From an uncultured cyanobacterium (lineage in GTDB: Bacteria > Cyanobacteriota > Cyanobacteriia > Phormidesmidales > Phormidesmidaceae), in assembly GCA_963793265.1 (NCBI GenBank), contig CAWBZI010000001.1, positions 928,001 through 992,000 of the forward strand: a DNA stretch of 64,000 nucleotides, read 5' to 3'. The notes below the pieces were generated by a model. The model saw only the letters and a program-made list of their open reading frames with translations. It searched no databases and was not told where the DNA came from. The translations under genes were made by a program, and so were the position numbers. This document shows positions 3-63,998 of the stretch, piece by piece; the stretch's first letter is position 1; each line of letters begins with the position of its first letter.

Positions 3-947
3 ACCAATCAGTTCAGCGTGTGGTCAGCCGTAGACAAATACTTTGTGCCCGTGACCTTAGAAAAGGTCATGAAAGACACCTCTGTTGTGTTGGGCTCGCG
101 CTTTTATATGCGAGACGAGCACGACTCGGGCGTCTTTCAAAAGGCACTGCGAGATAGCGCCATCATCAGCATGTTTGACGGCAGTTCGGTAGTGAACTTA
201 CACGCGCTGATTTTGCAGCGACGACAGCTTGCCAAAGCACGGGTGAAGATTCGCGATAAGCCGAAGAAGCTAGCGGCGATGAAGGCGCGTTTGGCACAAA
301 GCTTTTCACTCGACAAAGACGTACCTACGTTTGAGCCGAACAAGCTGGAGCTAATTAGCCGGGGCGCTGACGATGTGATGCAGGGCTTAGAGTTTGCGCT
401 TGAAAAGCTTGCGGAGCTTGAATCCTCGAACGATTCGACGGTTGATAAAGCCGTGCTTTCCCAAGTGCTGGAACTCGGCCAGGTCATTCTCGAAGAGCTG
501 GATGCTCAGGACGAATTGATTGCGCGATCGGCCTTTGAGCATGGTCACGATCAGTCGTTTGAAAGCTTTGAGCTAGCGAAGCAGTACTGCTATTTGCACG
601 CTGCGATCGCCGCCATCCTCATGTGGGTTCACAACCGGCAACTCCCCGAACTTGGCGACTTTTTCGCCAAAGGCGAGTGGCTTGTTCTTAGCCTACACCG
701 GCTGCTCTCTCACTTCCGCCTGTCGCTAACCCCGCCCCCAGCGGCCTACCACGAAAACGTAGCCCAGCACCTTTTGCAGCTACACCAGACGGATCGCATG
801 TTTTCCATCGTTCCTTTTCAGCTTGCACAGCCAAACCCAGCTCAAGCCGCTGAAAGAACTGCTCCGAATACCGCAACAGCTAACCCCACCCCACAGGAGA
901 CTCCCACCCATGCAGCAACTACAAAGCAAGAACTTCAGCTCCACTAG
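3..947 (+). CDS. Acyl-CoA/acyl-ACP dehydrogenase, C-terminal part (5' end outside window)
   Basis: Frame open from the window edge; ACAD C-terminal motif 'FQKALRDSAIISMFDGSSVVNL'; overlaps an ACP gene. Confidence 0.8.
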   Translation, partial: TNQFSVWSAVDKYFVPVTLEKVMKDTSVVLGSRFYMRDEHDSGVFQKALRDSAIISMFDGSSVVNLHALILQRRQLAKARVKIRDKPKKLAAMKARLAQSFSLDKDVPTFEPNKLELISRGADDVMQGLEFALEKLAELESSNDSTVDKAVLSQVLELGQVILEELDAQDELIARSAFEHGHDQSFESFELAKQYCYLHAAIAAILMWVHNRQLPELGDFFAKGEWLVLSLHRLLSHFRLSLTPPPAAYHENVAQHLLQLHQTDRMFSIVPFQLAQPNPAQAAERTAPNTATANPTPQETPTHAATTKQELQLH

Positions 948-1218
948 CGTCGCAACACCCGTCAAAGCCTCTCCAGTTGAAGCGATTCAAGCTTGGCTAG
1001 TAGAGCAAATTGCTGATGTTTTGTCGATTGACCCTGGCACCATCGAAGTTGCCCAGCCGCTCACTCGCTACGGTTTAGATTCTATTGATGCTGTCACCTT
1101 GGTAGGCGACTTAGAAGACTGGCTTGACCTTGAGCTGCCCTCTACTTTGCTATGGGACTATCCCAGCATTGAAAAGGCATCGGCATTCATGGTGGAAGAG
1201 TACGACGTGAGCCTTTAA
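910..1218 (+). CDS. Acyl carrier protein
   Basis: Phosphopantetheine motif YGLDSI; 'LLWDYPSI' end typical of FAAL/PKS-type ACPs; ATG at 910. Confidence 0.9.
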   Translation: MQQLQSKNFSSTSVATPVKASPVEAIQAWLVEQIADVLSIDPGTIEVAQPLTRYGLDSIDAVTLVGDLEDWLDLELPSTLLWDYPSIEKASAFMVEEYDVSL

Positions 1219-1301
1219 ATAGGTCTGTAAAGACTGTCGTAGGGCTCAGTTAACGCGGGCACTTTGCCCATAGTCGCTAATTTTGATTAGAAGCAAAGAC
1301 A

Positions 1302-2774
1302 TTGAACTTCTCTGAGTTTTCGTTTTGGTGGGTGCTCGCGCTCACCAGCATTCCTTTTTTCACGGTGCGCTACGTCGGCAAGGTTTTTGACCGATGGAGC
1401 GATCGCGCTGACACCATCGGCCTTGCCGCCCTCTCCCTGCTCCTCTTCCTCAACGCGAGCAGCACCAGCTTTGCAGTCTTCTTATTTGAGATTCTGTTTA
1501 ACTACTTCATGGTCAGCCTCATGCTGCGCCGCGAAGGGAAACAGGCAAAGCTCATCGCTGCGGCCATCATCATATTTGATGTCGCCGTCCTCGCCTACTT
1601 CAAATACCTCACCTTCTTCATAGAAGACTTTGTTGGTCTTGCCACCACCGTGCCGAACAATTGGGAATCAACGTTTCCCCTGCCTGTCTTCGGCAACATC
1701 CCCCCCGGCGTTTCGTTCTACACCTTTCAAATGGTAGCTTTTGTCGTCGATTCGTACACGGCCCGCCGTAAAAAGCCAATCAAGCTACTCGACTACATCA
1801 ACTTCGTCTCGTTCTTTCCTCAGATTGTGGCAGGCCCGATTGAGCGTCGCAGCAAGCTACTGCCTCAGATCCAGAACTTCAAGTTCAAGTTCACTGCTGA
1901 CAACTTCGATATCGGAATGCGCTGGCTATCGCTGGGCCTGTTCATGAAGTTTGTACTGGGCGATAACATCGCGCCCTACGTTAGCGCTAATAGCGCAGGC
2001 ATGGCGGAAGCTGCAAATCCCTGGCTAGTCTGGTTTTACGCCTTTTTATTCACGCTGCGGATCTACTTCGACTTTGGTGGTTATAGCTTCATGGCCGTTG
2101 GCATTGCCCGCATCCTCGGCGTCAAGCTCACGCTTAACTTTCTCTCGCCCTACACCTCTCAAAGCATTAATGAATTTTGGCGACGGTGGCACGTTTCGCT
2201 CAGCACATGGTTTCGTGACTATGTATTTTTGCCGCTGATGGGCAAGCGTAAAAAATGGGCGGCGTTTTTCCTATTCATTACCTTTGTGCTGTCGGGCTTT
2301 TGGCACGGTGCCGCCTGGAACTTTATGATTTGGGGCGCTTATCACGGCGGGTTGCTGCTGCTGCTGCGCTATGCCGGGCGACCGTTTTCTAAGGTGACGA
2401 GCAAGTTCATCAAGAAACCGCAGATCGTCTCTTGGGCGCTGACGTTCGGAGCGGTAATTTTAGGCTGCTTGTTCTTTATGGACACGAACATCACGCGGCT
2501 GATAGCTAAGCTACAAACGCTAGTCACGCCCTGGGCCTATTCGCCCGCTAATTTCATAGAGGCGATTAGTACGTTTAATACCCCTGAAGGTTTGGTGCTG
2601 AAGATGGCGCTGGTGTTAGCGATCGCATTCCTCGCCATAGAGCACATCGAAGTGTGGCAAAAGCGCACCGAATACGAAATTCTCACCTCTCCCTGGCTCT
2701 CACGCATTCTGCTAGGCATGACCATTGTGTTGGCTGCCCAAGCCCAGTCCGAATTTATCTACTTCGAGTTCTAG
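1302..2774 (+). CDS. MBOAT family O-acyltransferase (AlgI/DltB-like)
   Basis: P-G-SFYTFQ, FFPQIVAGPI, FWRRWH-SLS, GFWHGA motifs; C-terminal FIYFEF; TTG start. Confidence 0.93.
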   Translation: MNFSEFSFWWVLALTSIPFFTVRYVGKVFDRWSDRADTIGLAALSLLLFLNASSTSFAVFLFEILFNYFMVSLMLRREGKQAKLIAAAIIIFDVAVLAYFKYLTFFIEDFVGLATTVPNNWESTFPLPVFGNIPPGVSFYTFQMVAFVVDSYTARRKKPIKLLDYINFVSFFPQIVAGPIERRSKLLPQIQNFKFKFTADNFDIGMRWLSLGLFMKFVLGDNIAPYVSANSAGMAEAANPWLVWFYAFLFTLRIYFDFGGYSFMAVGIARILGVKLTLNFLSPYTSQSINEFWRRWHVSLSTWFRDYVFLPLMGKRKKWAAFFLFITFVLSGFWHGAAWNFMIWGAYHGGLLLLLRYAGRPFSKVTSKFIKKPQIVSWALTFGAVILGCLFFMDTNITRLIAKLQTLVTPWAYSPANFIEAISTFNTPEGLVLKMALVLAIAFLAIEHIEVWQKRTEYEILTSPWLSRILLGMTIVLAAQAQSEFIYFEF

Positions 2775-2787
2775 GAAAATCACTGCC

Positions 2788-3726
2788 ATGAAACTACCAA
2801 AACTCGCAAGCTGGATTGCGATCGCTGGACTCACCTGGAGCGCAGGATTTATCTACAACACGCGCTTAGGCGGCGATCCGCACTGGCTCGGTCAGCTCTA
2901 TAAAAACAAAATGGCGATCGCTGCCGACATCCCGGAACCCAAACTCATCATCACAGGCGGCTCCGGCGCTCACTACACCGTCAATTCCGATCTGCTAGCT
3001 GGCGAACTCGATATGCCTGTCGTCAACTTAGGGCTAGATGGGCCAATCGGGCTAGACGTGATTTTGCCGAGCGTTTTAGATGCCGTAGAACCGGGTGACA
3101 CTGTGCTACTGGTACCTGAATACCTAATTTTGTCTCCAATTAAGGATCTTAGAGATGGCTTAGGCGAAAAGTCAGCCTGGTTTGGCTTTGTTACTGACCA
3201 GGCAGGCGCTGGCGATCTTTCAGCTAAGCAGGTGGCCCTGGGCGTTTTTCAGCTAGGCATTCCCTCATTAAAAATAACCATAAAAGCCGCCGCCGACCTG
3301 CTCGAAGAAGGCCGCTTTGCAGGCTACTACGATGGCCCACTTACCGAACGCGGCGATCCTATCGAAACGAAGCTACGCACCGGGGAATGGTGGCCGTTAA
3401 AGATCGAAGCGCCTATCTCGGCTCATGCTGCCGAACGTATCGATCAGTTCAAATCAGAAGTCGAAGCCAGAGGCGGCGAACTTATTTTGTCGGTACCTTG
3501 GATATATGGCGATACTACCGACCCAGAAACCATAGAAAATATCCAAAAAACGGCGGATGCCCTCAGCGAGATTGCGCCTGTGCTGGTCGATAGCGAAACG
3601 CTAAATGTTCAGGCTGAGCCAACATTGTTTGCCGATACTCACTACCATTTAATTCCTGAAGGGAGAGAAGCGCGATCGCAACAGCTCGCCCTTCAGCTAA
3701 AACCGCTTCTATCCAATCCAAAATGA
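2788..3726 (+). CDS. Membrane-anchored SGNH/DltD-like protein, MBOAT partner
   Basis: N-terminal hydrophobic anchor, 'IITGGSG' block I-like motif, 'VVNLGL', C-terminal 'DTHYHL' (D-x-x-x-H); directly after MBOAT. Confidence 0.65.
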   Translation: MKLPKLASWIAIAGLTWSAGFIYNTRLGGDPHWLGQLYKNKMAIAADIPEPKLIITGGSGAHYTVNSDLLAGELDMPVVNLGLDGPIGLDVILPSVLDAVEPGDTVLLVPEYLILSPIKDLRDGLGEKSAWFGFVTDQAGAGDLSAKQVALGVFQLGIPSLKITIKAAADLLEEGRFAGYYDGPLTERGDPIETKLRTGEWWPLKIEAPISAHAAERIDQFKSEVEARGGELILSVPWIYGDTTDPETIENIQKTADALSEIAPVLVDSETLNVQAEPTLFADTHYHLIPEGREARSQQLALQLKPLLSNPK

Positions 3727-5007: not shown

Positions 5008-6927
5008 ATGACTTCTCTTCAGTCAAAAAAACAGAGCAAATGGAGCGCCTTTCATCGGTATCTAGAGCACTATAGCTTGGATGTGCGATCGCTAGCCCTC
5101 CTCAGAATTGGCCTGGCCCTCACTATCCTTGCCGACCTCTTCACCCGCGCAGGCGATCTCGTCGCCCACTACACAGACGCAGGCGTCCTACCCACAGCCG
5201 TACTCAATGACGGCATTTTACAGCCCGGCTACTGGTCAATCCATGCGCTCAGCGGTCAGCCGGTGGTGCAAGGCATTCTTTTTTTCGTGGCAGCGATTAG
5301 TGCGATCGCCATGCTATTTGGCTACCACAGCCGCATCGCCACCATCGCCTCCTGGGTTTTGCTGATCTCAATGCAAAACCGCAATCCGCTGCTACTATTT
5401 GCAGCCGATGACGTACTGCGAGCGGTCATGTTCTGGGCCATGTTTTTGCCCTTAGGCGCAGCCTACTCGGTTGATCGCGCCATGAACACCGCCATCCGCC
5501 CCGTCCCGCTGCGAATTCTATCAGGTGCCACGCTCGCCCTCATGGCTCAGCAGTGCTTCATCTACATTTTCTCCGCCATTTTCAAAACCACCAACGCCGC
5601 CTGGTGGCCCAATGGCACTGCCGTCTACTTTTCGCTCAGCTACGATCAGTACGTCACGCCGCTAGGCCACTTCCTTCTAAATCTAGGGCCGCTGCTCACG
5701 ATATTTACCTTCGTTACGCTAGTGCTCGAATGGATCGGGCCGCTGTTGATTTGGTCGCCCGTTCGCAACGATCTGTGCCGGATGATCGCAGTTGTCCTAT
5801 TCATTAGTCTTCACGCAGGCTTTGGCCTCACGCTGAACTTAGGCATCTTTCCGTTTCTGAGCATCATTACCTGGCTGGCGTTTATTCCCACCTCTACATG
5901 GGAGGCTTTGAGCAAGCGCGTTTATGGGCCTAACAAAGAAGGAAAAGGACGCGGCCCACAGCGCACGGGATTAAGAATCTTCTACGATGCCGACTGCGGA
6001 TTTTGCAAAAAGGTTGTGCATCTCATTCGGATGCTGTTAGTGCTGCCACATACGCCTTTAGCCACTGCGCAAAGCATTCCAGAAATCAACGAGGCTATGG
6101 AGAAGCAAAACTCTTGGGTGATTGTCGATTGGCAAGGGCGGCATCATTACAAGTTTGAGGGTATTGCCTATGTGGTTAGCCTGTCGCCAGTTTTTTGGTT
6201 TCTTGCACCTGTGCTGCGATCGCCCCCACTCATGGCCATCGGCACCCCTTTCTACGAATGGATCGCCACCCATCGCAAAATCGCAGGCCGCTTCACCCGC
6301 CCCTTCAAATTCAAGCCACTCACCGTCAAAAATCCTGGTTGGTTAAGCGCTATTGCCCTACTCCTCCTCGCGCTCACCTTTTCCTGGAACCTACGCAGCG
6401 TCGTCATGCACCGAGCCTTCGTCGAAAGCTCTCAGCCAACAGCAGCGCTAGTGCGCAGGGTCGTTAATAGCCGCACAGCTCAGCGGTTCGACTGGATCGG
6501 CAACGCTACCAGACTAGATCAATCCTGGAGCATCTTTGCACCAGGGCCACCGACTGATGATGGTTGGCACGTGGTTACCGGAGAGCCGCTGACGGCTTTG
6601 GCGACGGCTTCAGCGACTGAAGAAGCCACCGAAATTGATGTGCTTAGGCCGCAAGAGAGCATTAGTTTTGAGAAGCCGACTTTAGGCGATCGCGCCAAAT
6701 TCTACAAAAACATGCAGTGGCGCACCTTCTACATCAACCTCAACCGTAATATCGGCAAAAAGGTCTTCCCCAACTACGGCGAGTATCTATGCCAGCAAAG
6801 CGCCAGCAAAGGACATCCTTTAGAAAATCTGCGCGTCTACTTCATGGACGAAAGAACTGTAGATCCTGGCCTTACTCAGCCTGTAGAACAAACCTTAATC
6901 TGGGAGCAATCTTGCCAAAACCTTTAG
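5008..6927 (+). CDS. HTTM-domain membrane protein with inserted DCC1-like thiol-disulfide oxidoreductase domain
   Basis: 'DVRSLALLRIGL...HYTDAGVLP' HTTM start; 'IFYDADCGFC' DxxCxxC; 'LDQSWSIFAP'. Confidence 0.85.
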   Translation: MTSLQSKKQSKWSAFHRYLEHYSLDVRSLALLRIGLALTILADLFTRAGDLVAHYTDAGVLPTAVLNDGILQPGYWSIHALSGQPVVQGILFFVAAISAIAMLFGYHSRIATIASWVLLISMQNRNPLLLFAADDVLRAVMFWAMFLPLGAAYSVDRAMNTAIRPVPLRILSGATLALMAQQCFIYIFSAIFKTTNAAWWPNGTAVYFSLSYDQYVTPLGHFLLNLGPLLTIFTFVTLVLEWIGPLLIWSPVRNDLCRMIAVVLFISLHAGFGLTLNLGIFPFLSIITWLAFIPTSTWEALSKRVYGPNKEGKGRGPQRTGLRIFYDADCGFCKKVVHLIRMLLVLPHTPLATAQSIPEINEAMEKQNSWVIVDWQGRHHYKFEGIAYVVSLSPVFWFLAPVLRSPPLMAIGTPFYEWIATHRKIAGRFTRPFKFKPLTVKNPGWLSAIALLLLALTFSWNLRSVVMHRAFVESSQPTAALVRRVVNSRTAQRFDWIGNATRLDQSWSIFAPGPPTDDGWHVVTGEPLTALATASATEEATEIDVLRPQESISFEKPTLGDRAKFYKNMQWRTFYINLNRNIGKKVFPNYGEYLCQQSASKGHPLENLRVYFMDERTVDPGLTQPVEQTLIWEQSCQNL

Positions 6928-8424: not shown

Positions 8425-8530
8425 CGTTTACGGAACTCTCATCGCGAAGAATATGTCTGGTTTTAGCAGGTCTACCCGGCTAAAACCGCTCGGCCTTTTG
8501 CAGATCCATTCGTTCGCCCGCTAAGTGAGT

Positions 8531-9751
8531 ATGGTGCATCCTCCTGTTTCTAATTCGCCCGTAAGATCTAAAAAATATGAGGTAGCCGCTGCTACAGGTC
8601 GCTTCAACGGCATCAAATTAATAGCAACAGGTGTACTCGGGCTCACAGCAGCGATCGCCCTTTGGGAAGGCATTTTACGGCTCACCGTAGAGTCAAGCCA
8701 GGGCATTCACAACCACCCAGTCCTCGGCATTATCGACAGCCCAGGGCCGATGCTCCAAACCAAAGAGGGGTTCAATCGAGTCAGTCTCAACAGCCTCGGC
8801 ATGAGGGCATCTGAGCCCACACCAAAGCCCGTGGGTGAGTACAGAATTTTGATGCTGGGTGATTCTTTTATGCGCGCTGATGAGGTGAGCGATGGGCTGA
8901 ACTTTAGCGATCGCCTCCAAACCGCCCTCGATCCAACCGCCGACGCCGCTGATTCAGACCAAGCGCAGACCTTCACCAGCACCAGCAACCGCCAAACCGT
9001 AGAAACAATTCAGGTCATCAATGCAGGCAAACCCAGCGCCTCACCCGCTGGCTATCTATACGCCGCAGACTTTCACCAGCAAACCTTCGCGCCTGATAGC
9101 ACCGTTATTCAGCTAACAGAGCACGATTTCATCATGGACATGAGCAACGAATATTCGGAGTTCTATCTAGAGAAGACAGGCGAAGATACCTACAAGGTTA
9201 AACGAAATGAGGCGTTTGGTAGTGCCGATCCACTCGCTCAAAAAGTGATAGACGCTGTGCCCCAGGCGCGATCGCTCCTACAAATGTCTACCCTCCGCAT
9301 CGGCGGACGCAACCTAAACGCCGCCCTTTCTCCTACCGACTCTCACGCCGAAGCAGAAACAACCCTCTCCGCAGAAGACGAAACCGCCACCCAAGCCAAA
9401 GACGCCGCCATGGTGCGCTGGACAGTTCAGCAGCTCAACCAGCAATTCCCCAACCTGGTCATCCTTTTCATCCCCGCCATGAACTATCAAGACGCCGCCG
9501 AAGTCAGCAGCGAACCACGCAACGCCGCTATCGAAAATGCGCTCACAGCCGCCACTGCTGACCAGGACGTTCCTTTTGTTAATATGCGCGCCGACTTTCT
9601 AGCCCACTACCGCAGCGATCGCACCCACCTCAAAGGCTTCAACAACACGATTCCTGGCGAAGGCCACCTCAACGCAACAGGCCACACCCTTGTCGCGCAA
9701 AGACTCGCCCGCTTCTACCAGCAGCCCAACAGCCCACTACGGAGAAACTAA
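8531..9751 (+). CDS. SGNH/GDSL (AlgJ/AlgX-like) acyltransferase/hydrolase with N-terminal anchor
   Basis: 'RILMLGDSF', 'VINAG', 'GHLNATGH'; 3 bp upstream of the second MBOAT. Confidence 0.85.
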   Translation: MVHPPVSNSPVRSKKYEVAAATGRFNGIKLIATGVLGLTAAIALWEGILRLTVESSQGIHNHPVLGIIDSPGPMLQTKEGFNRVSLNSLGMRASEPTPKPVGEYRILMLGDSFMRADEVSDGLNFSDRLQTALDPTADAADSDQAQTFTSTSNRQTVETIQVINAGKPSASPAGYLYAADFHQQTFAPDSTVIQLTEHDFIMDMSNEYSEFYLEKTGEDTYKVKRNEAFGSADPLAQKVIDAVPQARSLLQMSTLRIGGRNLNAALSPTDSHAEAETTLSAEDETATQAKDAAMVRWTVQQLNQQFPNLVILFIPAMNYQDAAEVSSEPRNAAIENALTAATADQDVPFVNMRADFLAHYRSDRTHLKGFNNTIPGEGHLNATGHTLVAQRLARFYQQPNSPLRRN

Positions 9752-9754
9752 GCC

Positions 9755-11164
9755 ATGATTTTCTCCACTCCAGAATTCTTTCTATTCTTCGGCGTCGTAC
9801 TGCTATTTCTTGTCATCGCCAAAGGCCAAAGCACCAAAAAATACTTCCTCCTAGCCGCCAGCTATTTCTTCTACGGCTACTGGGACTGGCGCTTCACCTT
9901 TCTCATGCTCGCCATGACCGTTGTCAACTACGCACTCGGCCAGCGCGTATACACCGCCTCGACACACCGTCTCAAAAAGCTCAGCCTCACAGCCGCCATC
10001 GTTTTCGACTTAGGCGTACTCGGATTCTTCAAGTACTACAACTTCTTCATCGACTCAGCCAACTACGCCCTCCAACCCTTCCAGACAGGCACAGCAACCT
10101 TCTCATCGCTCAACATCATTTTGCCAGTAGGCATCTCATTCATTACCTTCCAAGTAATGGCCTACGTCATCGACATCTACCGCGGCGTCACACCCCCTGC
10201 CGATACCTTCTGGGACTTCGCTCTCCTCACAGCCTTTTTCCCTCAGCTCGTCGCAGGCCCCATCCTCAAAGCCAAACAGTTCCTCCCCGAGCTACAAAAA
10301 AAGACTGTCATCCGCCGCCAAAATCTACTGGCCGGAATGCAGCTATTCCTACTGGGCCTCTTCCGCAAAATCGTCATTGCCGATCGCCTCGCCCCCTACG
10401 TCGATACCGTCTTCAGCACCCCTCAAGATTTCAGCTCATTCACAATCTGGCTAGCTGTAATCGCCTACGCCATCCAAATCTACTGCGACTTCAGCGGCTA
10501 TAGCGACATGGCCATCGGCACCGCCAAATGCCTCGGCTACAACATCCCTATCAACTTCAATCTCCCCTACATCTCCCGCAGCATCACCGAATTCTGGCGG
10601 CGCTGGCACATCTCTCTTTCTACCTGGCTACGCGAATACATCTACATCCCACTCGGCGGCAACCGCAAAGGCAAACCCCGCCAATACCTCAACCTATGGC
10701 TCGTCATGCTACTCGGCGGCCTCTGGCACGGCGCAAGCTGGAACTTCGTCCTCTGGGGAGCCCTACACGGCAGCGCCCTAGCCGTTCACAAATTCTACGC
10801 CGACTACATCCGTCCCAAAATCTCGCTACCCGCATCGCTATACAACGCCATCACCTGGGCCATCACCTTTCTATTCATATGCAGCACCTGGGTCTTATTT
10901 AGAGCAGCCACCTTCCCCCAAGCCTTCACCGTGCTCCAAAGCATGTACATCTGGACACCCACCGGCATCAACTGGTACGCTACCGGCCTTATCGTGGCGA
11001 TACCAGGCGTTTTTATCGCTGACTATCTCGGTCATTTGCTCTACCAGGGCCGGTTCATTCAGCTCAACCGCTTCAGCCATTGGTTCTGGCTCTCCTTCTG
11101 GCTGCTTGGACTGCTTTTCTTAGCGCCCCAAACCCCACAGCCTTTCGTATATTTCCAGTTCTAA
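9755..11164 (+). CDS. MBOAT family O-acyltransferase (AlgI-like)
   Basis: 'LPVGISFITFQ', 'YCDFSGYSDMA', 'FWRRWHISLS', 'GLWHGA', C-terminal FVYFQF. Confidence 0.95.
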   Translation: MIFSTPEFFLFFGVVLLFLVIAKGQSTKKYFLLAASYFFYGYWDWRFTFLMLAMTVVNYALGQRVYTASTHRLKKLSLTAAIVFDLGVLGFFKYYNFFIDSANYALQPFQTGTATFSSLNIILPVGISFITFQVMAYVIDIYRGVTPPADTFWDFALLTAFFPQLVAGPILKAKQFLPELQKKTVIRRQNLLAGMQLFLLGLFRKIVIADRLAPYVDTVFSTPQDFSSFTIWLAVIAYAIQIYCDFSGYSDMAIGTAKCLGYNIPINFNLPYISRSITEFWRRWHISLSTWLREYIYIPLGGNRKGKPRQYLNLWLVMLLGGLWHGASWNFVLWGALHGSALAVHKFYADYIRPKISLPASLYNAITWAITFLFICSTWVLFRAATFPQAFTVLQSMYIWTPTGINWYATGLIVAIPGVFIADYLGHLLYQGRFIQLNRFSHWFWLSFWLLGLLFLAPQTPQPFVYFQF

Positions 11165-46273: not shown

Positions 46274-47074
46274 GTGACGCTCGGCGCGGTTATTCTTCTA
46301 TCTTTAACAGGCTTAGTTTCTGGCGTATTGGCTGGTTTTTTGGGCATTGGAGGCGGTACTTTGCTGGTGCCGGTGCTGGTGCAGCTTGGCTTCTTGCCAG
46401 TGCGGGCGACGGCGACGAGTTCGCTAGCTATATTAGTCACTTCTAGCGCGGGCAGCTTTCAGAACTGGCGAATGGGCTTTTTGGACGTTAGGCAAATTTT
46501 GCTGCTGGGTGCACCTGCGGTATTGACGGCTTTTGTGGGGGCTTTTGTGGGCGATCGCATCCCCTCATACGTCCTCCTCGCAGGCTTTGGCGTCCTGCTA
46601 CTGAGCAACCTATATCTTGTCTCACTCAAAAAACGCGTCATCCGCACGGCTCAGTTTCGAGAGGGGCGCACAGCCTCTACAGGGCCAGCCATTTCGCCGC
46701 TAACGGCCCGCATTATTACTGGAGCGACAGCGGGATTTATGGCCGGGCTCTTCGGTGTCGGCGGCGGTGTCATCTTAGTACCGCTACAAATTTTGCTACT
46801 GGGCGAACAGATTAAAACGGCCATTCGCACCAGTCTTGGCGTTATTGTCATCACCTCTGTCGCGGCGATTTCTGGACATGCGCTCAATGGCAATATTGAT
46901 TTGATTGCTGGTTTAATCTTGGGCCTCGGTGGCCTCGTCGGCGTACAGATCAGCACACGCTTTCTGCCTAAGCTGAGTGACAGCACAGTCACCCAGCTCT
47001 TTCGAGCCATGCTGATCGTGCTGTCAATTTTCATTTTTTGGCAGGCTTGGCAAACCTACAGAACGGTGAGCTAG
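46274..47074 (+). CDS. Sulfite exporter TauE/SafE family protein
   Basis: Duplicated 'G..AG..G.GGG...VP' membrane repeats. Confidence 0.9.
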   Translation: MTLGAVILLSLTGLVSGVLAGFLGIGGGTLLVPVLVQLGFLPVRATATSSLAILVTSSAGSFQNWRMGFLDVRQILLLGAPAVLTAFVGAFVGDRIPSYVLLAGFGVLLLSNLYLVSLKKRVIRTAQFREGRTASTGPAISPLTARIITGATAGFMAGLFGVGGGVILVPLQILLLGEQIKTAIRTSLGVIVITSVAAISGHALNGNIDLIAGLILGLGGLVGVQISTRFLPKLSDSTVTQLFRAMLIVLSIFIFWQAWQTYRTVS

Positions 47075-47100: not shown

Positions 47101-47871
47101 CTAGGCTTCACACAGAGCCTTTGCCAAAACAATATCAAAATATTTAGCCTCTCCTACCTGACCCGAAATCACTTCAAAGGGTGCGTTTGGTTCGCCAAAG
47201 TCGCTGATAACGAGCGTGGCTTTTGAGAAGTCTTGTTGGCGGGTGTAGTCATTGACGGTGACGACGGTTTTAAGTCCGGTTTGCGTCGCTGAGAGCAGGC
47301 CGTTGTTGGTATCTTCAAAGCCAAGGCAGTTTTCAGGCGGGAGCTGGAGGTGCTTGAGGGCGTATTCAAAAATGTCGGGGGCGGGCTTTTTGTGTGGCAC
47401 CATGTCGCCTGCGGCAATGACCTCGAACCAGTCGAGGCTTTGCGCGCCGAGGGTGTTTTCGAGTAGGGCTTGGACGTTTGCTGGGGTTGTTGTTGTTGCG
47501 ATCGCTAATCTCACTCCCTTTTCCCTCGCCTCATTCAGCAACCGCTCCACTCCAGGCCGCAAAGGAATCTTCCCTTCTGCCGCATACTGCTTGTAATACT
47601 TCGTCTTAGTCGCGTGCAGGTGCTTAATAAATTCCGTGAGATCGGCGTAGGCATCAGGCAGTACAAAATCCGGCTTGGACTGCTGCACAAACGCCTTCAT
47701 CCGCTCCTTACCGCCCGAGACTTCTAGCAGCTCGCCATAGCGCTCCTCAGACCAGTTCCAGTCCAGGCCGTTGTCGGCAAAAGCCTGGTTAAACGCGGGC
47801 CGATGGCCGTCACGCTCGGTTTCGGCCAGGGTGCCATCTACGTCAAAAATCAGTGCTTTTAGCTCGGCCAT
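47101..47871 (-). CDS. cbbY: CbbY-like HAD phosphatase
   Basis: 'LIFDVDGTLAETERDGHR.AFN', 'GGKER', 'KKPAPDI'. Confidence 0.85.
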   Translation of the reverse strand: MAELKALIFDVDGTLAETERDGHRPAFNQAFADNGLDWNWSEERYGELLEVSGGKERMKAFVQQSKPDFVLPDAYADLTEFIKHLHATKTKYYKQYAAEGKIPLRPGVERLLNEAREKGVRLAIATTTTPANVQALLENTLGAQSLDWFEVIAAGDMVPHKKPAPDIFEYALKHLQLPPENCLGFEDTNNGLLSATQTGLKTVVTVNDYTRQQDFSKATLVISDFGEPNAPFEVISGQVGEAKYFDIVLAKALCEA

Positions 47872-56290: not shown

Positions 56291-57063
56291 TGCATTTAGA
56301 AGTCTCGAAGCTGCACAAGCAGTTTTCTACAAAAGAAGGGCCGGTCGTTGCGCTCAAAGATCTAAACTTGCATGTCGAGCAGGGAGAGTTTGTGTGCGTG
56401 GTGGGCGCTTCTGGCTCAGGCAAATCTACGCTGCTGCGACTGATAGCAGGACTCGAACAGCCGACAGCAGGAGACATTAGGGTAGATGCTCGATCCGTGA
56501 TGGGGCCGGGCGCTGATCGGGGAATGGTGTTTCAGAACTACACGCTGTATCCGTGGATGAGCGTGCAGCGGAATGTGGAGTTTGGGCTGAAGTTACAGGG
56601 GGTGGATAAGTCCAAGCGGCGAGAGCGGGCGTCTTATTACTTGGAGATGGTGGGCTTAAGTGAGTTTTCGCAGGTGTTGCCGAAGCAGCTTTCGGGGGGG
56701 ATGAAGCAAAGGGTTGCGATCGCCCGCGCGCTCACCAGCCAGCCTAAAATATTGCTAATGGACGAACCTTTCGGGGCGCTAGACGTGCAAACCAAAGAGA
56801 CAATGCAACAGTTTTTGCTAGAGCTATGGAATCGCACGGGCACGAGCATCTTGATGATTACGCACGATGTTCGCGAGGCTGTTTTTCTCTCACAGAGAAT
56901 CTATGTGATGACGGCGCGGCCTGGCACTGTTCAAGCTGAGCTTGAGATAGATTTGGGGGATGTGCGATCGCCTATCACCCGAGAAGATCCCCGCTTCAAA
57001 ACGTATCAAGATAGCGTAATGGGTTTTCTTCAAACAAAAGAACAGATTACGTCGTTACCATGA
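56290..57063 (+). CDS. ABC transporter ATP-binding protein
   Basis: GASGSGKST, LSGGMKQR, LLMDEPF. Confidence 0.95.
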   Translation: MHLEVSKLHKQFSTKEGPVVALKDLNLHVEQGEFVCVVGASGSGKSTLLRLIAGLEQPTAGDIRVDARSVMGPGADRGMVFQNYTLYPWMSVQRNVEFGLKLQGVDKSKRRERASYYLEMVGLSEFSQVLPKQLSGGMKQRVAIARALTSQPKILLMDEPFGALDVQTKETMQQFLLELWNRTGTSILMITHDVREAVFLSQRIYVMTARPGTVQAELEIDLGDVRSPITREDPRFKTYQDSVMGFLQTKEQITSLP

Positions 57064-57754
57064 CATCATCAGCGGCTTGCTGCTTGCGAGCATGGATGCG
57101 CCGAGCAATTTTCAAACAAGTATGTGCGGCAACAATTAAAAAGCCTTCTGAAATAAGCTTAAATCCTTCCTCTAAAACAAAGATCCAGCCCTGAATCTGT
57201 TCAGTCGCTTCTGCTGAAAATACTGTCAAGAGAATGTCGTCTCTGTTGGTAATCACGTCTATACCAACCATTGCGAACAAACAGATAAAGCCCGCGATCA
57301 CGTAGGGCGTAACGGCCCCGTATTTCTTTAGCTCATGGCGGCAGCGGATGAATATGCCAATTGCGATGAGTCCGTAGAGGCCAACGATTAGGTCGTCAAT
57401 GCGATCGCTCGCAGCCGTTTCTTGTGCCAGCCAAATCTTATGAATGGTCTTATCCAGAAACTCATGGATCATCAGCAAATCATCTAGGGCCAAAAAAGAA
57501 AAGCCCAGGCTGAAAATGCCCCAAACGGCGGCGGGCGATCGCCAGGGACGCCTAAAGCTTTGCCCTCGCAGCTTAAACATCTGATGCATGAAGTAGGACA
57601 GGATGAATAGCTGAATGACTGAGAAATAGGTGATGAATCCGCCATCTTCAAACTGCCGGTAGACCTTTTCAAAGGGGGCGCTGATGATGACGGTGGCGGC
57701 GATCGCTAACAAATTAAGCGAGAGCACCTTATAGAGTGTGTACTTGGCTGGCAT
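57047..57754 (-). CDS. Hypothetical membrane protein
   Basis: Several TM segments; 'ALDD...IHE' and 'EE..K' motifs. Confidence 0.75.
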   Translation of the reverse strand: MPAKYTLYKVLSLNLLAIAATVIISAPFEKVYRQFEDGGFITYFSVIQLFILSYFMHQMFKLRGQSFRRPWRSPAAVWGIFSLGFSFLALDDLLMIHEFLDKTIHKIWLAQETAASDRIDDLIVGLYGLIAIGIFIRCRHELKKYGAVTPYVIAGFICLFAMVGIDVITNRDDILLTVFSAEATEQIQGWIFVLEEGFKLISEGFLIVAAHTCLKIARRIHARKQQAADDVMVTT

Positions 57755-57889: not shown

Positions 57890-60800
57890 ATGAAGCGCTA
57901 TGGCCTGATTGTGGGGATTGACAAGTATAAGCCTGTCTCTCGTCTGCCGTATTACGGAAGTCCAACAAGCTTGAATAGGGCTAAAAGTGACGCTCAGGCG
58001 GTGTATGAGCTGCTGCGGGAGCATGGCGATTTTAACGATCTTTTGACTCTGTACGATAGTCAGGCGACTGAGGCTGAGCTGAAGAAGGCGCTAAAGCATG
58101 TGCTATTGGAGCAGGGCAAGCAGGCGGAGGTGCTGATTTATTTTGCGGGGCATGGGTTTACGGCGCAGCCGAGTGAGTTTGAGCGGCAGGGGTATTTGGC
58201 GACTTACGATTGCCAGGTTCGGGTGCAGGATGATGTGCCGGTAAATGTTGAGCAAGGGCTGTCGTTTGAGTTTTTGAACGGGGTGATTGGGAAGGCGCAG
58301 CGGGAAGGGCTGGCAGGGCTGGCTGTGTTTTTGGATTGCTGTGAGAGTGAGCTGATTATTGAGGATGCGCTGATAGGTCACAAGCTGAGCCGACTGACGC
58401 AGAAGGGCTGTTTTTTGAGTACGGCCTGTCGGAGCTTTGAGGTGGCGCGGGAGGATGCGCGGTATGGGCTGTATACCGGGGCTTTGGTGGCGGCGCTGAC
58501 GGATGAGGCGGATGTGAGTGCGGGCAATGAGATTACGGTTTCGGAGGCGCATAATCGGGTGGAAAGGGCGCTGAAGGAGTCGGGGCAGGAGCCGATTGCG
58601 TTTGGCTATGGCAGCAGTATGGTGATGGTGCGCTATCGGGGTGCGGGTGTTGCGCAGGCGGTGAGTGAGGTGTGCCCGTATCAGGGGTTGAATGAGTTTA
58701 CGCCGGAGACGGCGCAGTTCTTTTTTGGGCGGGATGATGAAGTTGCTGAGCTGTGTCAAAAGCTGAGGACGACTAATTTTGTGCCAGTGTTGGGGCCTTC
58801 GGGGAGTGGAAAGTCTTCGGTGGTGCGGGCGGGGCTGGTGAAGAGGCTGCAGACTGAGGGCTGGCAAACGGTGACGATGAAGCCGGATAAGCAGCCGATG
58901 GTGGAGTTGGAGCGGGTGCTACGGCAGTTTTTTGAGACGATGGGGTTTTCTACCGGGCGGGTGCGTGAGGTGATGGAGGGTTTGGGCTTTTGTGAGCTAG
59001 GTGAGGGCGATTTGAGTGGCGATGACCATAAAGCCTTCCCGAAAGAACTAGACCATCTGAAGCAATCCGACCTTAAGCTATTGCTCATCGTCGATCAGTT
59101 TGAGGAGGTGTTTACGCTATGTGAGGACAAAGCAGCGCAGCGGGCGTTTATTCGCAAGCTATTTCATCTGGGCGAGGTGGGAGCATCGCGGATAAAAGTG
59201 GTGATGACGATGCGGTCGGATTTTGTGGATGACTGGCTGGCGGCGGGACTGTCGCGGTCGGTGATTGGGGAGGATACGGTGTGGCTGGGGGCGTTGCAGG
59301 GAGAGAATTTGGCGGCGGTGATGGAGCAGCCTGCACGGAAGCAGGGCTATGCGTTTGAGGCGGGGCTGCTGAAGCTGTTGCTGACGGATGTGGACAAAGA
59401 AGAGAATTGTTTGCCGCTGTTGGAGTTTGCGCTGACGGCGCTGTGGGATAAGCGAGAGACGCAGACTAGAAAACTGACGGTGACGCTTATGAAGAGATGG
59501 AAGGGCTGACAGGGGCGCTGAATCGGCAGGCGATCACGGTGTATGAAGGCTTGCAGGACGTGGATAAGCCGTGGGCGAAGCGGATTTGTTTACAGCTTGT
59601 GCGGGTGGGGCGAGGGGATAAAGATACTCGGCAGCGGCAACCAAAAGCAATGTTGTTGAGTATGGGCGGTGTAGCTCAGCGACAGGTGATTGCTGATGTG
59701 ATTGCTGATTTGGTGAAGGGGCGATTGTTGGTGAGTGATGGAGGTGGTGTTGCAGAAACCGCTTATGTGGATGTTGCGCATGAAGCTCTGCTGAGCGGAT
59801 GGGAGCAGTTTGCCGCATGGCGGCTGGAGGATAGAGATCTGCTGCGGCTAGAGCAGCGGCTAAAGGATGCTTATGAAGATTGGCAAGCTAAGGAAGATAG
59901 TCAAGAAAGAGATAAGTATTTACTGACAGGTGGGCTGCTGGCGGAGGTAACAGAACAGCACGTGGCACTAGGCGAACGGCTGAGAGGTAATCGTCCCGCA
60001 TTGATGAAGTACCTCAATGACAGTAGCCGGAAAGCTGAAAAAGATGTAGAAGTATTAAAAAAAGCGCTTGCCAAGGCCAGCCTACAAGAGGAATCTCGTA
60101 AAGTCTTAGACAAATTCGAATCAACTTCAAGCCTCTCAGTAGAGGCTACTCTGTCAGTGATAGAAATTGCAGGGAGAAGTAAGCATACTTTGAATGAGTT
60201 GATTCCGCCTGTTCAGAATGCCTTGCACACAGCGCTATCAAGAAATCGAGAGCGATTGAGAATAGAGAATCAGATGAGTCTAGTTGATTCACTTGCTTTC
60301 AATCCCTCATGCGATATCTTTGCTGCCGGGAATGAGGATGGAACTCTTCGCTTGTGGGATATGCACGGAAACCCAGCCAGCCAGCCTTCTCCAAGTAGAC
60401 ATTGCGGTAGCATTTGGTCGTTAGCATTTAGTCCCAAGGGAGATCGAATCGTCTCTGGTGGAAGCGATGGCATGTTATATCTCTGGGACTCACAAGGTTC
60501 TCCGATTATATGTTCATTTGAGGGGCACACTAGCGAGTTCATGGATGTTGCTTTCAACCATAGAGGAAATCTCATCGTATCAGGCGATAGAGAGGGTATT
60601 CTACGCCTTTGGAATAGAGATGGAAAGATGATCGGGGACCCTTTCTTTGTAGAGAATTCAGGATCAGTTCTATCCTTATCTTTTAATAAAAAAGGAGATC
60701 ACATAGTCTCATGTCACGATAGCGGAGAAGTATTTTTGTGGAACTTAGCTGGCGAAATTGTTGGTAAACCTTCTTTTTTTGAGGCAACAGGATTCTCTGT

Positions 60801-62307
60801 TGTGGCAATTAGCGCCAGTCAGAATGCGTTTGTATGCGGGGATGAAGACGGCGCATTGAAATTGCAGAATATAGATGGCAATCCAATGACTGACTATTTT
60901 TGGTGCCAATCGCCTGTAGTCTCTATTGTAGGCTTTAGCCCGGACGGAGAGCGAATAGTTTCAGGTAGCAGCAATGGCCTTTTGCAAATATGGGATCTAA
61001 AGGGCAATTCTATTGGCAGACCTCTTGCAGGGCATACTGACGAGATTTTGTCACTGTCTTTCAATGCATCAGGGGATAAGATTATATCTAGTAGCAAAGA
61101 TGGCACTACGCGACTCTGGGATTTGACGGGTACTTTGATGAACAAGCCTTTCGCTGTCCATCATAATTATGGCGTCATACTTTCTGCTGACTTTAGTCCC
61201 GATGGCAAGCGGATTGTTGCTAGTGGGGGCTCTGGTATGATCTCTACTCCCGGCGTTTGCGTTTGAGATTTACAAGGCGTTCCTATTGGCTCAGCTTTCG
61301 CAGAGAATGCTGGATTTTCGGCTATCAGTCCAAAGAATAATCATATTGTTTGTTCTAAAGGTAGTAGCCTACAAGTCTGGGATTTAGAAGGTAATTGTAT
61401 GAGTCCATCCTTCGATGGACACAAGCACACCGTTTCGTCTGTAGCGTTCAGTCCGAACGGAGAGCAGATTGTCTCTGGTAGCTATGATGGCACCGTTCGA
61501 CTCTGGGAATTAGATGGAAGTCCTATTGGCAAGCCGTTTATAGGACATACACGAGCTATCTGGTCTGTAGCCTTCAGCCCAAAGGGGGACTGTATTGCGT
61601 CTGCTAGTGCTGATAGAACTCTGCGCTTATGGGATTTGGATGGGAATCTACTTGCTAAGCCTTTTGTTGGGCATACAGACGTCATTTCTACAGTGGTATT
61701 CAGTCCAGCAGGAGAAATTGCCTCTGGCAGCTTTGATCAAACAATACGGTTGTGGTCAGTAGATGGCCAGCCTATTTTAGAGCCTATGATTGGCCATGTT
61801 GGCGAAGTCAACTCACTAGCATTCAATCCAAGTGGGACACTGATTGCTTCAGGTGGTAGCGACAACACTGTAAGATTATGGGACGTAAAAGGAAATTCTG
61901 TTGGCGAACCTTTCTTAGGTCATACCGCTTCTGTCAATGCAGTAGCCTTTAGCCCTAAGGGTGACTTGATAGTCTCAGGTGATTCAAATCAGTCTATCAG
62001 GGTTTGGCCTGCCGGAAGTGGTAACGATTGGATTCTCCATTGCTGCAATACCCTTATGCACCATTCTACCTTCACTTCTCCCTCAGATGGATCAGCAGGC
62101 GTCACCGCTCATAATGCCTGTAGTGTATGCGAACAACTGTGGACAAAGCAGCTATTTTCTGAGTTTCTAGTAGCGCAGGGTAGCGCGTTAGCACGGCGAG
62201 GGGAGATAGATACAGCGATTGAAAAATTCAACCATGCAAAAGAACTGAACGCTGAGCTGACGTTAGATGCAGTGGCTCGGGCGAATGAGCTAGCAGAGTG
62301 GGGGTGA
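57890..62307 (+). pseudogene. Caspase (C14)-nSTAND NTPase-WD40-TPR protein interrupted by a frameshift (~59481) and a nonsense codon (61264)
   Basis: YFAGHG/FLDCC dyad; 'CPYQGL..F', GPSGSGKSS, 'LIVDQFEE', 'LPLLEFAL', 'HEAL', multiple WD repeats; three ORF pieces join into one reading frame. Confidence 0.85.
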
Positions 62308-62332
62308 GTAGTTCATCGCTTGATCTGGACAT

Positions 62333-62353
62333 TAATAACGGCAAGCGTTATTA
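62333..62353. promoter_or_regulatory. Palindromic operator of higBA
   Basis: TAATAACG-N5-CGTTATTA perfect inverted repeat 7 bp before the higB ATG. Confidence 0.7.
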
Positions 62354-62360
62354 TTCATAG

Positions 62361-62642
62361 ATGATTGTTTCTTTCAAATGTAAGGAAACTGAAAAACTGT
62401 TTCGCGGTAGGTTCTCCCGTAAGCTGCCACAGAACATTCAGCGAATAGCAGCCCGTAAGTTGGAACAGCTTCATGCTGCCACCATTTTAGATACGCTGCG
62501 AGTACCCCCCGGCAATCGGCTCGAATCACTCAGCGGTGATAGAAAAGGGCAGCATAGTATTCGGATAAATGACCAGTGGAGACTTTGCTTCATTTGGCAC
62601 AACGGCAACGCAACTGATGTAGAAATAGTTGACTATCACTGA
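62361..62642 (+). CDS. higB: HigB (RelE/ParE-family) toxin
   Basis: 'MIVSFKCKETE', 'PPGNRLE.L.GDRKGQHSIRINDQWR', 'VEIVDYH'. Confidence 0.95.
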   Translation: MIVSFKCKETEKLFRGRFSRKLPQNIQRIAARKLEQLHAATILDTLRVPPGNRLESLSGDRKGQHSIRINDQWRLCFIWHNGNATDVEIVDYH

Positions 62643-62652
62643 GGTAACTTCG

Positions 62653-62979
62653 ATGAGCGATTCTCGAAACGAGAGGCTGAGCCAACGCGACTTTCCACCT
62701 ATACATCCCGGCGAGATACTGCTAGAAGACTTTCTTAAACCAATGGATCTCAGTCAGTATGCTTTATCTAAAGCTATTGGTGTTCCCCCTCGTCGGATCA
62801 ACGAAATTGCGCTTGGCAAAAGAGGCATCACTGCCGATACTGCTTTGCGGTTGGGTCATTTCTTCGGCATGGAAGCGCAGTTTTGGATGAACCTTCAAAC
62901 TCGGTACGATTTAGAAACAACGCGCGAACTCTTATCCGATCGATTGATCCAAGAAGTTCGCACTCGCTCAGCACTCTAA
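62653..62979 (+). CDS. higA: HigA (HTH-XRE) antitoxin
   Basis: 'PIHPGEIL.EDFL', 'RINEI..GKRGITADTALRL', 'FWMNLQ'. Confidence 0.95.
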   Translation: MSDSRNERLSQRDFPPIHPGEILLEDFLKPMDLSQYALSKAIGVPPRRINEIALGKRGITADTALRLGHFFGMEAQFWMNLQTRYDLETTRELLSDRLIQEVRTRSAL

Positions 62980-63055: not shown

Positions 63056-63619
63056 ATGGTACAAACTCCAACCAAACCGCTTACCCTATCAGCGTTTCTA
63101 GAACTTCCAGAAACTAAACCTGCGAGCGAGTTTATAGATGGCAAAATTACACAGAAGCCAATGCCAAAAGGGAAGCACAGCAGGCTACAAACTAAGCTAT
63201 CTAGCGTCATCAACGACTTTCTAGAGCCTCAAAAAACGGGCCTAGCCTTTACAGAGCTACGGTGTAGTTTCGACGGCTCAGCTATCGTTCCAGATATTGT
63301 CGTCTTGCACAGCAGCCGAATTCCTCGCGACGAGGACGGCGACATCGCAGACATTGTAGAAGTAGCGCCCGATCTAACTGTAGAGATTTTGTCTCCTCAG
63401 CAAAGCCAGACCAAAGTCATTAAAAAGATTTATCGCTGTCTTGCGCACGGTAGTGAGCTGGGCTGGCTGATTGATCCAAAAGAGAGAACAGTTTTGGTGT
63501 TTCGGGCAGAGCGGGCGATCGCAATCCTAGACAAACCATCAGATAGCCTACCAGTGCCTAGCGTTCTAACCGGCTTCAAGCTAACGATAGATACTCTCTT
63601 TGGCTGGTTGCAGGTGTGA
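63056..63619 (+). CDS. Uma2 family endonuclease (DUF820)
   Basis: 'PETKPASEFIDG', 'KHSRLQ', 'VPD', 'APDL.VEILSP', 'WLIDP'. Confidence 0.93.
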   Translation: MVQTPTKPLTLSAFLELPETKPASEFIDGKITQKPMPKGKHSRLQTKLSSVINDFLEPQKTGLAFTELRCSFDGSAIVPDIVVLHSSRIPRDEDGDIADIVEVAPDLTVEILSPQQSQTKVIKKIYRCLAHGSELGWLIDPKERTVLVFRAERAIAILDKPSDSLPVPSVLTGFKLTIDTLFGWLQV

Positions 63620-63621
63620 TT

Positions 63622-63660
63622 TGTCAGGTTGACTGCACGAGTATATCAATCAACCTGACA
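63622..63660. terminator. Inverted repeat between convergent genes
   Basis: TGTCAGGTTGA...TCAACCTGACA perfect 11-bp arms. Confidence 0.55.
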
Positions 63661-63671
63661 GCATTTCCCCC

Positions 63672-63998
63672 TTACAAAACGTTCAGTCGCTTCGTCAGCA
63701 CAACCATCACCTCATTATCGCGGTCAGTCGCAATAGGCCGACTCCAATCGTTAGGCTCCGCATAGCCAAGCTGGTGAAACTTTTTGATGGCGGCGCGTAC
63801 GGCGGGTAGAGTGCCGAAGACTAGGTGGCGAAGGTCTTCAGGCTGCGGCGATCGCCCACCACTCCCACCGGAACCCGAAGGCGGTACGGCAGCAAAATCA
63901 TCAGACGCCGCAGCGCCCGCATTAGCAGTCATAAACATGAGATCTGGTTTCCAAAGAGGGTGTACTGGAGAAAACCAGAACCCAAAATCCTTAGCCAC
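63672..63998 (-). CDS. Conserved cyanobacterial hypothetical protein (start uncertain, may lie outside window)
   Basis: 'RHLVFG...AV...I...H.LGYAEPNDWS.P' motif familiar from cyanobacterial accessory regions. Confidence 0.7.
   Translation of the reverse strand: MAKDFGFWFSPVHPLWKPDLMFMTANAGAAASDDFAAVPPSGSGGSGGRSPQPEDLRHLVFGTLPAVRAAIKKFHQLGYAEPNDWSRPIATDRDNEVMVVLTKRLNVL

Follow-up and report, generated by a model that had tools for sequence, protein, structure and literature searches.

For thirty years the palindrome HIP1 (GCGATCGC) has been, to our knowledge, without a known mechanism, and the window (the whole 64,000-nucleotide stretch of cyanobacterial DNA analyzed here) raises the question of what acts at these octamers to make the composition of their flanks change polarity. 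An earlier note had claimed that each strand passes at HIP1 from a G/T-rich to a C/A-rich flank, in genes on either strand. The nine sites that it quoted (46551, 47498, 8907, 6216, 50270, 56716, 56964, 63515, and 63848) are all confirmed in coordinates and flanks, and the flip is found in genes of both orientations, with HIP1 47498 lying inside a minus-strand HAD-family hydrolase open reading frame (ORF). HIP1 is hyper-abundant in the genome that holds the window, with 6,888 copies in 5.68 Mb and 1.16 to 1.35 copies per kb on seven of seven contigs. The sites in the window are as follows.

603..63855, no strand: 63 HIP1 octamers (GCGATCGC), about 1 per kb, each a switch point from G-rich before to C-rich after, on both strands
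46451..46658, no strand: example HIP1 (46551-46558) with polar flanks of about 100 bp, within plus-strand ORF 46274-47074
47398..47605, no strand: example HIP1 (47498-47505) of the same polarity, within minus-strand HAD hydrolase ORF 47101-47964
8807..9014, no strand: example HIP1 (8907-8914) with polar flanks
6116..6323, no strand: example HIP1 (6216-6223) with polar flanks
56616..57071, no strand: adjacent HIP1 sites 56716 and 56964
63415..63955, no strand: HIP1 sites 63515 and 63848 with polar flanks

The flip at HIP1 is real. Of the 63 sites of the window, 51 have a positive C-G asymmetry over 30 bp per side, 5 have none, and 7 have a negative one, and the mean asymmetry was attained by none of 5,000 random position sets. 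Genome-wide, 84% of the 6,888 sites are positive and 13% negative, with a C skew of 0.172 at 4 to 50 bp, and composition follows a saw-tooth, passing from C-rich to G-rich between adjacent HIP1 sites. The gradient is limited to the full octamer and its decay product GTGATCGC: 88 control palindromic octamers with at least 30 sites lying at least 300 bp from HIP1 gave a mean skew of -0.003 (sd 0.020, maximum 0.038), 4,307 bare GATC sites outside CGATC/GATCG were without skew (-0.007), and neither CGATCG with other ends nor the one-end variants had a gradient. The A/T component is weak, with an A skew of 0.056 over all sites and 0.037 at fourfold sites and with 38 sites positive and 19 negative in the window, so the flip is one of G to C more than of G/T to C/A. 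We found no description of a HIP1 flank gradient in the literature.

Could such a pattern stem from codon usage or gene position, from replication skew, or from flanks that pair into hairpins? At fourfold sites 4 to 10 bp 3' of HIP1, C reaches 0.45 and G 0.115 (about 4:1), and the skew is +0.597 where the strand is coding and +0.591 where it is template. The gradient appears in all three reading frames (0.78-0.89), both flanks are positive in 37 of 37 bins of 200 kb, and mirror complementarity is 0.2564 against 0.2571 from composition, which argues against hairpin or quasi-palindrome pairing. In favor of an artefact, same-peptide control sites retain 0.22-0.26 (75-153 sites per frame, one-off HIP1 variants included) and regional fourfold skew reaches ±0.3. 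The sign change at HIP1 nevertheless holds after control for codon position and gene strand and is missing at control palindromes, which leaves an artefact with a negligible likelihood; codon, frame, gene-strand, regional-skew, and hairpin explanations are refuted by these controls.

The gradient has a kernel with components of about 15 bp (14-16) and about 100 bp and a tail past 1 kb, and its intergenic lnC/G is 0.14-0.26 against 0.8-0.9 at fourfold sites, or about one-third of the signal. A protein that binds HIP1 or translocates from it, in chromosome organization or directional loading, might select for flanks in a lineage-specific way, as with the known HIP1 extensions. The 14- to 16-bp component, the strong C preference at +2/+3, the fixation-bias signature and lineage-dependent sign described below, and the conservation and periodicity of HIP1 itself (reported in the accessible part of PMC5861425) are all in line with such selection. 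We consider it quite unlikely, however, since the gradient decays smoothly to 1-2 kb with no helical period (the strongest residual period is 3), is spread across hundreds of weakly biased sites per HIP1, and is retained on both sides of decayed GTGATCGC sites (n = 434; 0.62 and 0.73).

Among 45 genus members none is closer than about 77-81% to the genome of the window, and a trio of other, related members was therefore used for the substitution analysis (270 ortholog triples, 84-88% identical, unrooted). In this trio lnC/G is 1.14 at 300 HIP1 sites present in all three genomes and 0.63 at 76 present in two, and at 55 sites found in a single genome the bearer has 0.56 and the orthologs without the site have 0.18. 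Changes with and against the gradient number 139 and 117 on the HIP1-bearing branch and 166 and 222 on other branches. The bias is ongoing and grows with the age of the site; a fossil skew without an ongoing process was the null rejected in the substitution models, and a protection-only model was rejected in their comparison. The earlier proposal of a strand-specific process anchored at HIP1 is thus supported by these data together with the codon, strand, and palindrome controls.

The spectrum of the changes bears on what kind of process this is. G>C shows the largest rise at fourfold sites of the strand that leaves HIP1 (+1.05 ± 0.17, about 2.9-fold), T>C rises as well (+0.43 ± 0.10), C>G (-0.51 ± 0.21) and C>A fall, and G>A is unchanged (+0.02 ± 0.13), while total divergence near HIP1 equals that far from it. 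The earlier note had suggested deamination of single-stranded DNA exposed from HIP1, for which the changes to be expected on the 5' strand are C>T and A>G, and the signs of the A/T and C/G skews, together with the rises of T>C and of twofold G>A (+0.39 ± 0.17), are as this would predict. The transversion-dominated spectrum largely refutes it and makes it very improbable: fourfold G>A does not move, reverse rates fall, A does not go up at fourfold sites and purines drop from 0.48 to 0.32, and fourfold GC inside genes is slightly raised rather than lowered close to HIP1 (odds ratio 1.135, 2,562 genes). A deamination-only model gains only 7 log-likelihood units against 31-38 for bias models. Nor do these data support simple error-prone repair synthesis: C>G falls, and divergence near HIP1 is not raised. 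A search for mutation-accumulation data from cyanobacteria found no such data set.

A nick at HIP1 might also lead to a stretch of DNA that is exposed or error-prone, with guanine lesions (oxidation products) on the strand 3' of the site turning into G>C and G>T. G>C is indeed the largest single change, a model with two parameters, for G>C and G>T, improves the fit by 21 units, rises-only fits the fourfold data as well as equal-and-opposite rates (gains of 25.4 and 23.7), and the fourfold exchange sums are slightly positive (G<>C, 0.54 ± 0.27; T<>C, 0.36 ± 0.10). Such a mutagenic patch is doubtful all the same, given the falls of C>G and C>A, a lack of any context signature, the flat divergence, and the twofold sites, where transversions are impossible and the skew is equally clear: G>A and T>C go up there on the leaving strand (+0.39 and +0.34), the reverse A>G and C>T fall (-0.50 and -0.32; se 0.16-0.17), and rises-only gains 1.4 against 13.3. 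Here a one-parameter equal-and-opposite model gains 12.9 log-likelihood units, rises-only 1.4, and falls-only 7.8, a comparison stable for three kernel lengths. At twofold sites the bias acts like one of fixation; from fourfold sites alone this cannot be told apart from rises-only. Favored substitutions going up, their reverses going down, and divergence staying unchanged point to a fixation or conversion bias and not to single-strand deamination.

HIP1 likely marks the point from which a tract of repair or recombination runs in a single direction. We suggest, with a probability of roughly 0.4, that HIP1 determines which of the two strands is rewritten when a duplex holds a mismatch, and that the polar flanks and the ongoing substitutions result from this. 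We infer that mismatches would come from incoming DNA, from exchange between chromosome copies in recombination, or from replication errors, and that the strand lying 3' of HIP1 would be taken out and then copied anew from the one lying 5' of it. G:G, G:A, and G:T mismatches are much more apt than C:C, C:T, and A:C to arise, to last, or to undergo repair, as is known from MutS/Hex genetics and mismatch thermodynamics. If mismatches that contain G are resolved at a higher frequency than C:C/C:T, each round would, because of this preference, shift the rewritten strand toward C and its template toward G; in lineages of reversed polarity the other strand would be processed. Mismatch symmetry predicts twofold G>A and T>C biases that are equal within error, as is the case, and the mismatch model predicts the similar net fourfold biases of A>C (0.67 ± 0.23) and G>T (0.71 ± 0.48), beside 1.55 ± 0.28 for G>C. 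Further points in its favor are a gradient seen in all 15 neighbor contexts (0.80-1.28), the lack of a helical period, the flat divergence, the growth with site age, the slight GC rise, and the raised integration in PCC 7002 cited below. Standing against the mismatch model are the fourfold G>A changes, which are without net bias (0.05 ± 0.24) while T>C is biased (0.50 ± 0.13), the equally good fit of rises-only at fourfold sites, the threefold weaker intergenic signal, the lack of MutH, NucS, or Vsr as a strand signal, and the weak or reversed gradients in groups of naturally competent model strains.

For the fourfold data, an additive model of base preference does equally well (AIC gain, 52.6, against 53.2 for the mismatch model and 52.0 for the free model), so the fit does not single out the mismatch step, and equal-and-opposite twofold rates suit any drive. 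DNA might be cut or processed at HIP1 in uptake or recombination, and a G-rich single strand ending 3' at HIP1 might be better bound, protected, or integrated by RecA, DprA, or the uptake channel, thereby spreading G-rich alleles; we see this as possible, if on the unlikely side. TGG occurs 16,336 times on the strand approaching HIP1 and 8,413 times on the leaving strand, and RecA filaments are described in the available portion of PMC3763553 as having their highest stability on TGG repeats. The abundance of HIP1 covaries with pilus and competence genes (PMC13756078), and comEC, dprA, and comF-family genes are encoded here. However, the approaching strand is only weakly enriched in T (fourfold lnA/T of about 0.1), a conserved RecA preference leaves the reversal in Synechocystis salina unexplained, and in PCC 7002, where homologous and methylated HIP1 raise integration, the HIP1 effect survives addAB deletion (10.1101/2024.09.10.611283).

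As to enzymes for the strand-choosing rewriting of mismatches, MutS and MutL are encoded in the genome, and the methyltransferase matches comprise one D12-family (Dam-family) and eight C5 proteins. MutH had no match in the window's genome (99% complete), Vsr had none in 22 genomes, and NucS had weak partial matches in 3 of 22 but none in the window's genome; on these gene searches all three were rejected as the strand-signal enzyme.

Polarity depends on lineage. The gradient is positive at 55 of 55 loci in close kin, near zero in Microcystis, and of opposite sign in Synechocystis salina and in one further genome (replicated, -0.74 ± 0.14), and plasmid pSYSM of Synechocystis PCC 6803 (50 kb, 32 sites) has no clear gradient (0.37 ± 0.27 and -0.12 ± 0.17). 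Samples beyond close kin cover only 20-80 kb per genome, so most such values are noisy. It is nearly an even bet, in our judgment, that HIP1 serves as the fixed-polarity entry to a recombination or repair pathway, undescribed so far and linked to methylation, which causes strand-polar gene conversion at thousands of sites per genome, shifts amino acid usage, and has switched the processed strand between lineages. If so, the gradient reveals direction and tract length ahead of any enzyme. In any case it means that something directional acts from each HIP1 site, it predicts the direction, the range of about 15 and 100 bp with the tail past 1 kb, and a ranking of mismatches (G:G versus C:C), and lineages of opposite sign offer a comparative handle for finding the enzyme. 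The reading of synonymous sites, GC skew, and amino acid usage in these genomes is affected as well.

Several known systems share features with HIP1. Dam/MutH repair has in common with this genome the GATC core, a Dam-family methylase, MutS, and MutL, but MutH had no match here and bare GATC carries no gradient; MutH repair is also bidirectional and follows the new strand. GC-biased gene conversion is strand-symmetric and favors G:C over A:T. The HIP1 effect shares with it a fixation bias (favored changes up and reverses down at twofold sites), the slight GC rise, and spill-over into amino acids, whereas its main effect is from G:C to C:G, picks the G-carrying strand, and is anchored to a motif. 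The DNA uptake sequences of Neisseria and Pasteurellaceae are, like HIP1, abundant short words tied to transformation, and a drive could shape their flanks; they are non-palindromic with short fixed flank preferences, and we know of no strand gradient of 100 bp to 1 kb around them. The same octamer figures in Elhai's model of G-meC-directed mismatch repair, in which, in the accessible text of PMC4390886, a nick near HIP1 picks the degraded strand, whichever is new. That model accounts for the origin of HIP1 sites and does not cover flank composition, and the words "skew" and "asymmetr-" are absent from its main text as available; here the effect is one-directional, and the full octamer and GTGATCGC alone carry it. 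The GT-rich islands of Escherichia coli Chi are likewise G-rich on the strand ending at a recombination-linked word and have been attributed to codon usage (Tracy 1997; Biaudet 1998, as cited in the accessible part of PMC3763553). Chi is non-palindromic and orientation-dependent, in contrast to HIP1, a perfect palindrome around which the sign changes inside individual genes of either strand and for which codon usage is excluded; a base-preference drive would make HIP1 a palindromic, codon-independent counterpart of these islands.

Amino acid usage also differs 3' of HIP1, where Thr, Asn, Ile, His, and Pro are up and Val, Glu, Met, and Gly down, with same-peptide controls too small to confirm all of these. 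In the related trio, 300 of 431 intragenic HIP1 sites are common to all three genomes (HIP1 alone counted, no control motif), and the commonest single change at lost sites is C>T at position 2 (24 of 51).

The C-G gradient at HIP1, in which flanks are G-rich before the motif and C-rich after it, is real, HIP1-specific and ongoing, and its sign varies by lineage. The window holds 63 copies of HIP1 (GCGATCGC), and those quoted in an earlier note are present at their positions. That note described a flip from G/T-rich to C/A-rich flanks. Its C-G part stands: over 30 bp per side the asymmetry is positive at 51 sites against 7 with a negative value and 5 at zero, and none of 5,000 random position sets matched it. 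The A-T part is less marked, with 38 sites positive, 19 negative and a match in 3 of 5,000 sets. Across the genome (5.68 Mb, 7 contigs), the 6,888 HIP1 copies are 84% positive and 13% negative at 4 to 50 bp, with a mean of 0.172, against -0.003 (sd 0.020, maximum 0.038) for the 88 other palindromic octamers that had enough sites away from HIP1. The control palindromes that the note had proposed for comparison thus lack the gradient, and in this genome neither bare GATC nor CGATCG with other ends has one. No description of the gradient was found in the literature, as judged from titles and abstract openings, with subscription papers mostly outside the scope; the main texts of PMC4390886 and PMC5861425 contain no occurrence of "skew" or "asymmetr-".

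Genes were called with our own hexamer-scored ORF finder (4,619 genes, 86% coding). At fourfold sites 4 to 10 bp along the leaving strand, which runs 3' of HIP1, C reaches 0.45 and G 0.115, and splitting by gene strand gave the same skew on coding and template strands; A and T hardly shift. An additive logistic kernel fitted to 444,529 sites gave log-odds of 1.34 (4 to 15 bp), 0.75 (30 to 60) and 0.32 (100 to 150), then 0.11 (300 to 450), 0.066 (700 to 1000) and 0.016 (1.5 to 2.5 kb), and its near part fits two exponentials of about 14 to 16 and 100 to 120 bp. From one HIP1 to the next, the skew runs from C-rich to G-rich. The gradient appears whichever of the three reading frames is taken, in each of the six codon-bias classes (0.73 to 0.97), in 15 of 15 neighbour contexts and, on both flanks, in 37 of 37 genome bins, and it is superposed additively on the regional fourfold GC skew, which on contigs C1, C2, C4 and C6 varies between about -0.3 and +0.3 over hundreds of kb. 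At intergenic bases the signal shrinks to about a third. G loss is highest within 20 bp, and the gain of C over T is highest at 21 to 50 bp and fades more slowly, possibly reflecting two processes.

The gradient is retained on both sides of GTGATCGC (434 sites), the expected product of deamination at the methylated C of HIP1; the remaining eleven single variants gave weak or inconsistent values. Genome-wide, HIP1 flanks showed neither mirror complementarity nor a helical period. At positions +1 to +3, mirror complementarity falls below the permuted, not frame-stratified, expectation (z -15, -7 and -6), and palindrome extension seems to be avoided beside HIP1 here, in contrast to the GGCGATCGCC of Synechocystis.

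Because a search of 45 genus members gave no close relative of the window's genome, we aligned a trio of other members (G004, G007 and G009; 270 ortholog triples, 84 to 88% identical, 0.6 to 0.7 Mb of each), all of which show the same gradient. HIP1 is shared by all three at 300 of 431 intragenic sites (lnC/G 1.14 at 4 to 40 bp; naive errors throughout 0.03 to 0.14), by two at 76 (0.63, and 0.60 in the genome without the site) and confined to one at 55 (0.56 in the bearer, 0.18 in orthologs). At single-genome sites, 139 changes run with the gradient and 117 against it on the bearing branch, and 166 with and 222 against on the other branches. Together, these values and counts show that the gradient grows once a site has arisen and persists for a time after its loss. 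Single-genome sites differ from their orthologs by at least two bases in 78 of the 111 listed segments, above the expectation from 12 to 16% divergence, an excess that agrees with a ratchet or drive creating HIP1.

Substitutions were estimated with a three-branch Markov model at the 29,831 of 38,704 aligned fourfold sites with a consistent HIP1 neighbourhood; since the trio's root was not placed, one branch is partly read in reverse. Each value is the change in log rate at HIP1 for the leaving strand, with its error from 48 gene-bootstrap replicates. Rises are seen for G>C (+1.05±0.17), A>C (+0.30±0.15) and T>C (+0.43±0.10) and, with larger errors, for G>T (+0.57±0.33) and T>A (+0.55±0.30); C>G (-0.51±0.21) and C>A (-0.37±0.19) fall, and G>A (+0.02±0.13) and C>T (-0.07±0.06) stay near zero. 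The models included codon-family and rate terms, some fits being run with fewer iterations. Deamination of exposed single-stranded DNA, one of the processes that the earlier note had suggested, fares poorly, as a deamination-only model gains just 7.1 log-likelihood units against 31.3 for an additive preference, 32.6 for a mismatch-symmetric bias and 38.0 for free rates, these three being equal on AIC. A model that changes just G>C and G>T gains 21.0, and one with rises only gains 27.6. A guanine-lesion patch at HIP1 strikes us as improbable. The 19,418 twofold sites gave changes of +0.39 for G>A, -0.50 for A>G, +0.34 for T>C and -0.32 for C>T; there, equal-and-opposite changes gain 13.3, falls only 7.8 and rises only 1.4. 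In the fourfold data a rises-only model (25.4) does as well as an equal-and-opposite one (23.7). Pairwise divergence is equal near HIP1 and far away.

Favoured rates up, reverse rates down and constant divergence are what a conversion or selection bias is expected to produce. Selection for protein binding at HIP1 flanks seems to us quite unlikely. Five of the six base pairs of changes have signs that follow one rule: at a G-containing (or T:T) mismatch, the winner is the strand 5' of HIP1. G<>A obeys it at twofold sites and not at fourfold ones. The ranking of mismatches is taken from MutS/Hex genetics and mismatch thermodynamics. The rate pattern and these signs lead us to prefer, with a probability of roughly 0.4, that HIP1 would act as the fixed-polarity start of a tract along which the strand 3' of it is rewritten. 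Recombination or uptake proteins may instead prefer a G-rich strand that ends at HIP1; this reading accounts for the numbers equally well, and we regard it as a possible but somewhat doubtful alternative to the rewriting tract. We read the gradient as a variant of biased conversion or drive that is strand-polar and anchored on a motif, and its candidate mechanisms are open to direct test.

The genome encodes MutS, MutL, Dam-family and C5 methyltransferases and ComEC; MutH, NucS and Vsr were not found in it. One C5 methyltransferase match (contig C1, 809848-811017, minus strand) has two internal stops, and another (C4, 93034-94084) is split in two pieces. Competence and recombination genes also lie in the window:

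21775-22551, minus strand, ComF-family gene
40959-42146, minus strand, RecF gene
47955-49214, plus strand, DprA gene

The nearest named dnaG relatives are mostly labelled Phormidesmis. Among loci that span 8 kb or more and carry 6 or more HIP1 sites, the gradient is positive at 16 of 16 from the genus of the window's genome, at every one of the 39 from the next-closest named group and at 13 of the remaining 26. In Microcystis, whose loci were pooled (59 sites), values are mixed and lie around zero. Genome G027 is weakly reversed (-0.26±0.16 and -0.15±0.09), and G029 gave -0.24±0.11 at 4 to 20 bp only. In G027 (loci L020, L099 and L100), GGGATCCC replaces HIP1 (104 sites across 60 kb). The gradient is reversed in two genomes that carry the GGCGATCGCC extension, Synechocystis salina LEGE 00031 and the uncultured G042; they were picked after a negative value had appeared, and replication comes from separate new DNA alone (95 sites), at -0.74±0.14 (4 to 20 bp), -0.24±0.08 (21 to 60) and zero beyond. 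Values are weakly negative at two more Synechocystis loci, and plasmid pSYSM has no clear sign.

Elsewhere in the window, two DltB-like (MBOAT) acyltransferase genes (1302-3726 and 8525-11164) lie 7 kb apart, each adjoining another ORF, and a HetZ-family gene (36787-37902) exceeds the curated cut-off. A caspase-like domain protein, two further ORFs and a HigA antitoxin occupy 57890-62979, a possible defence cluster.
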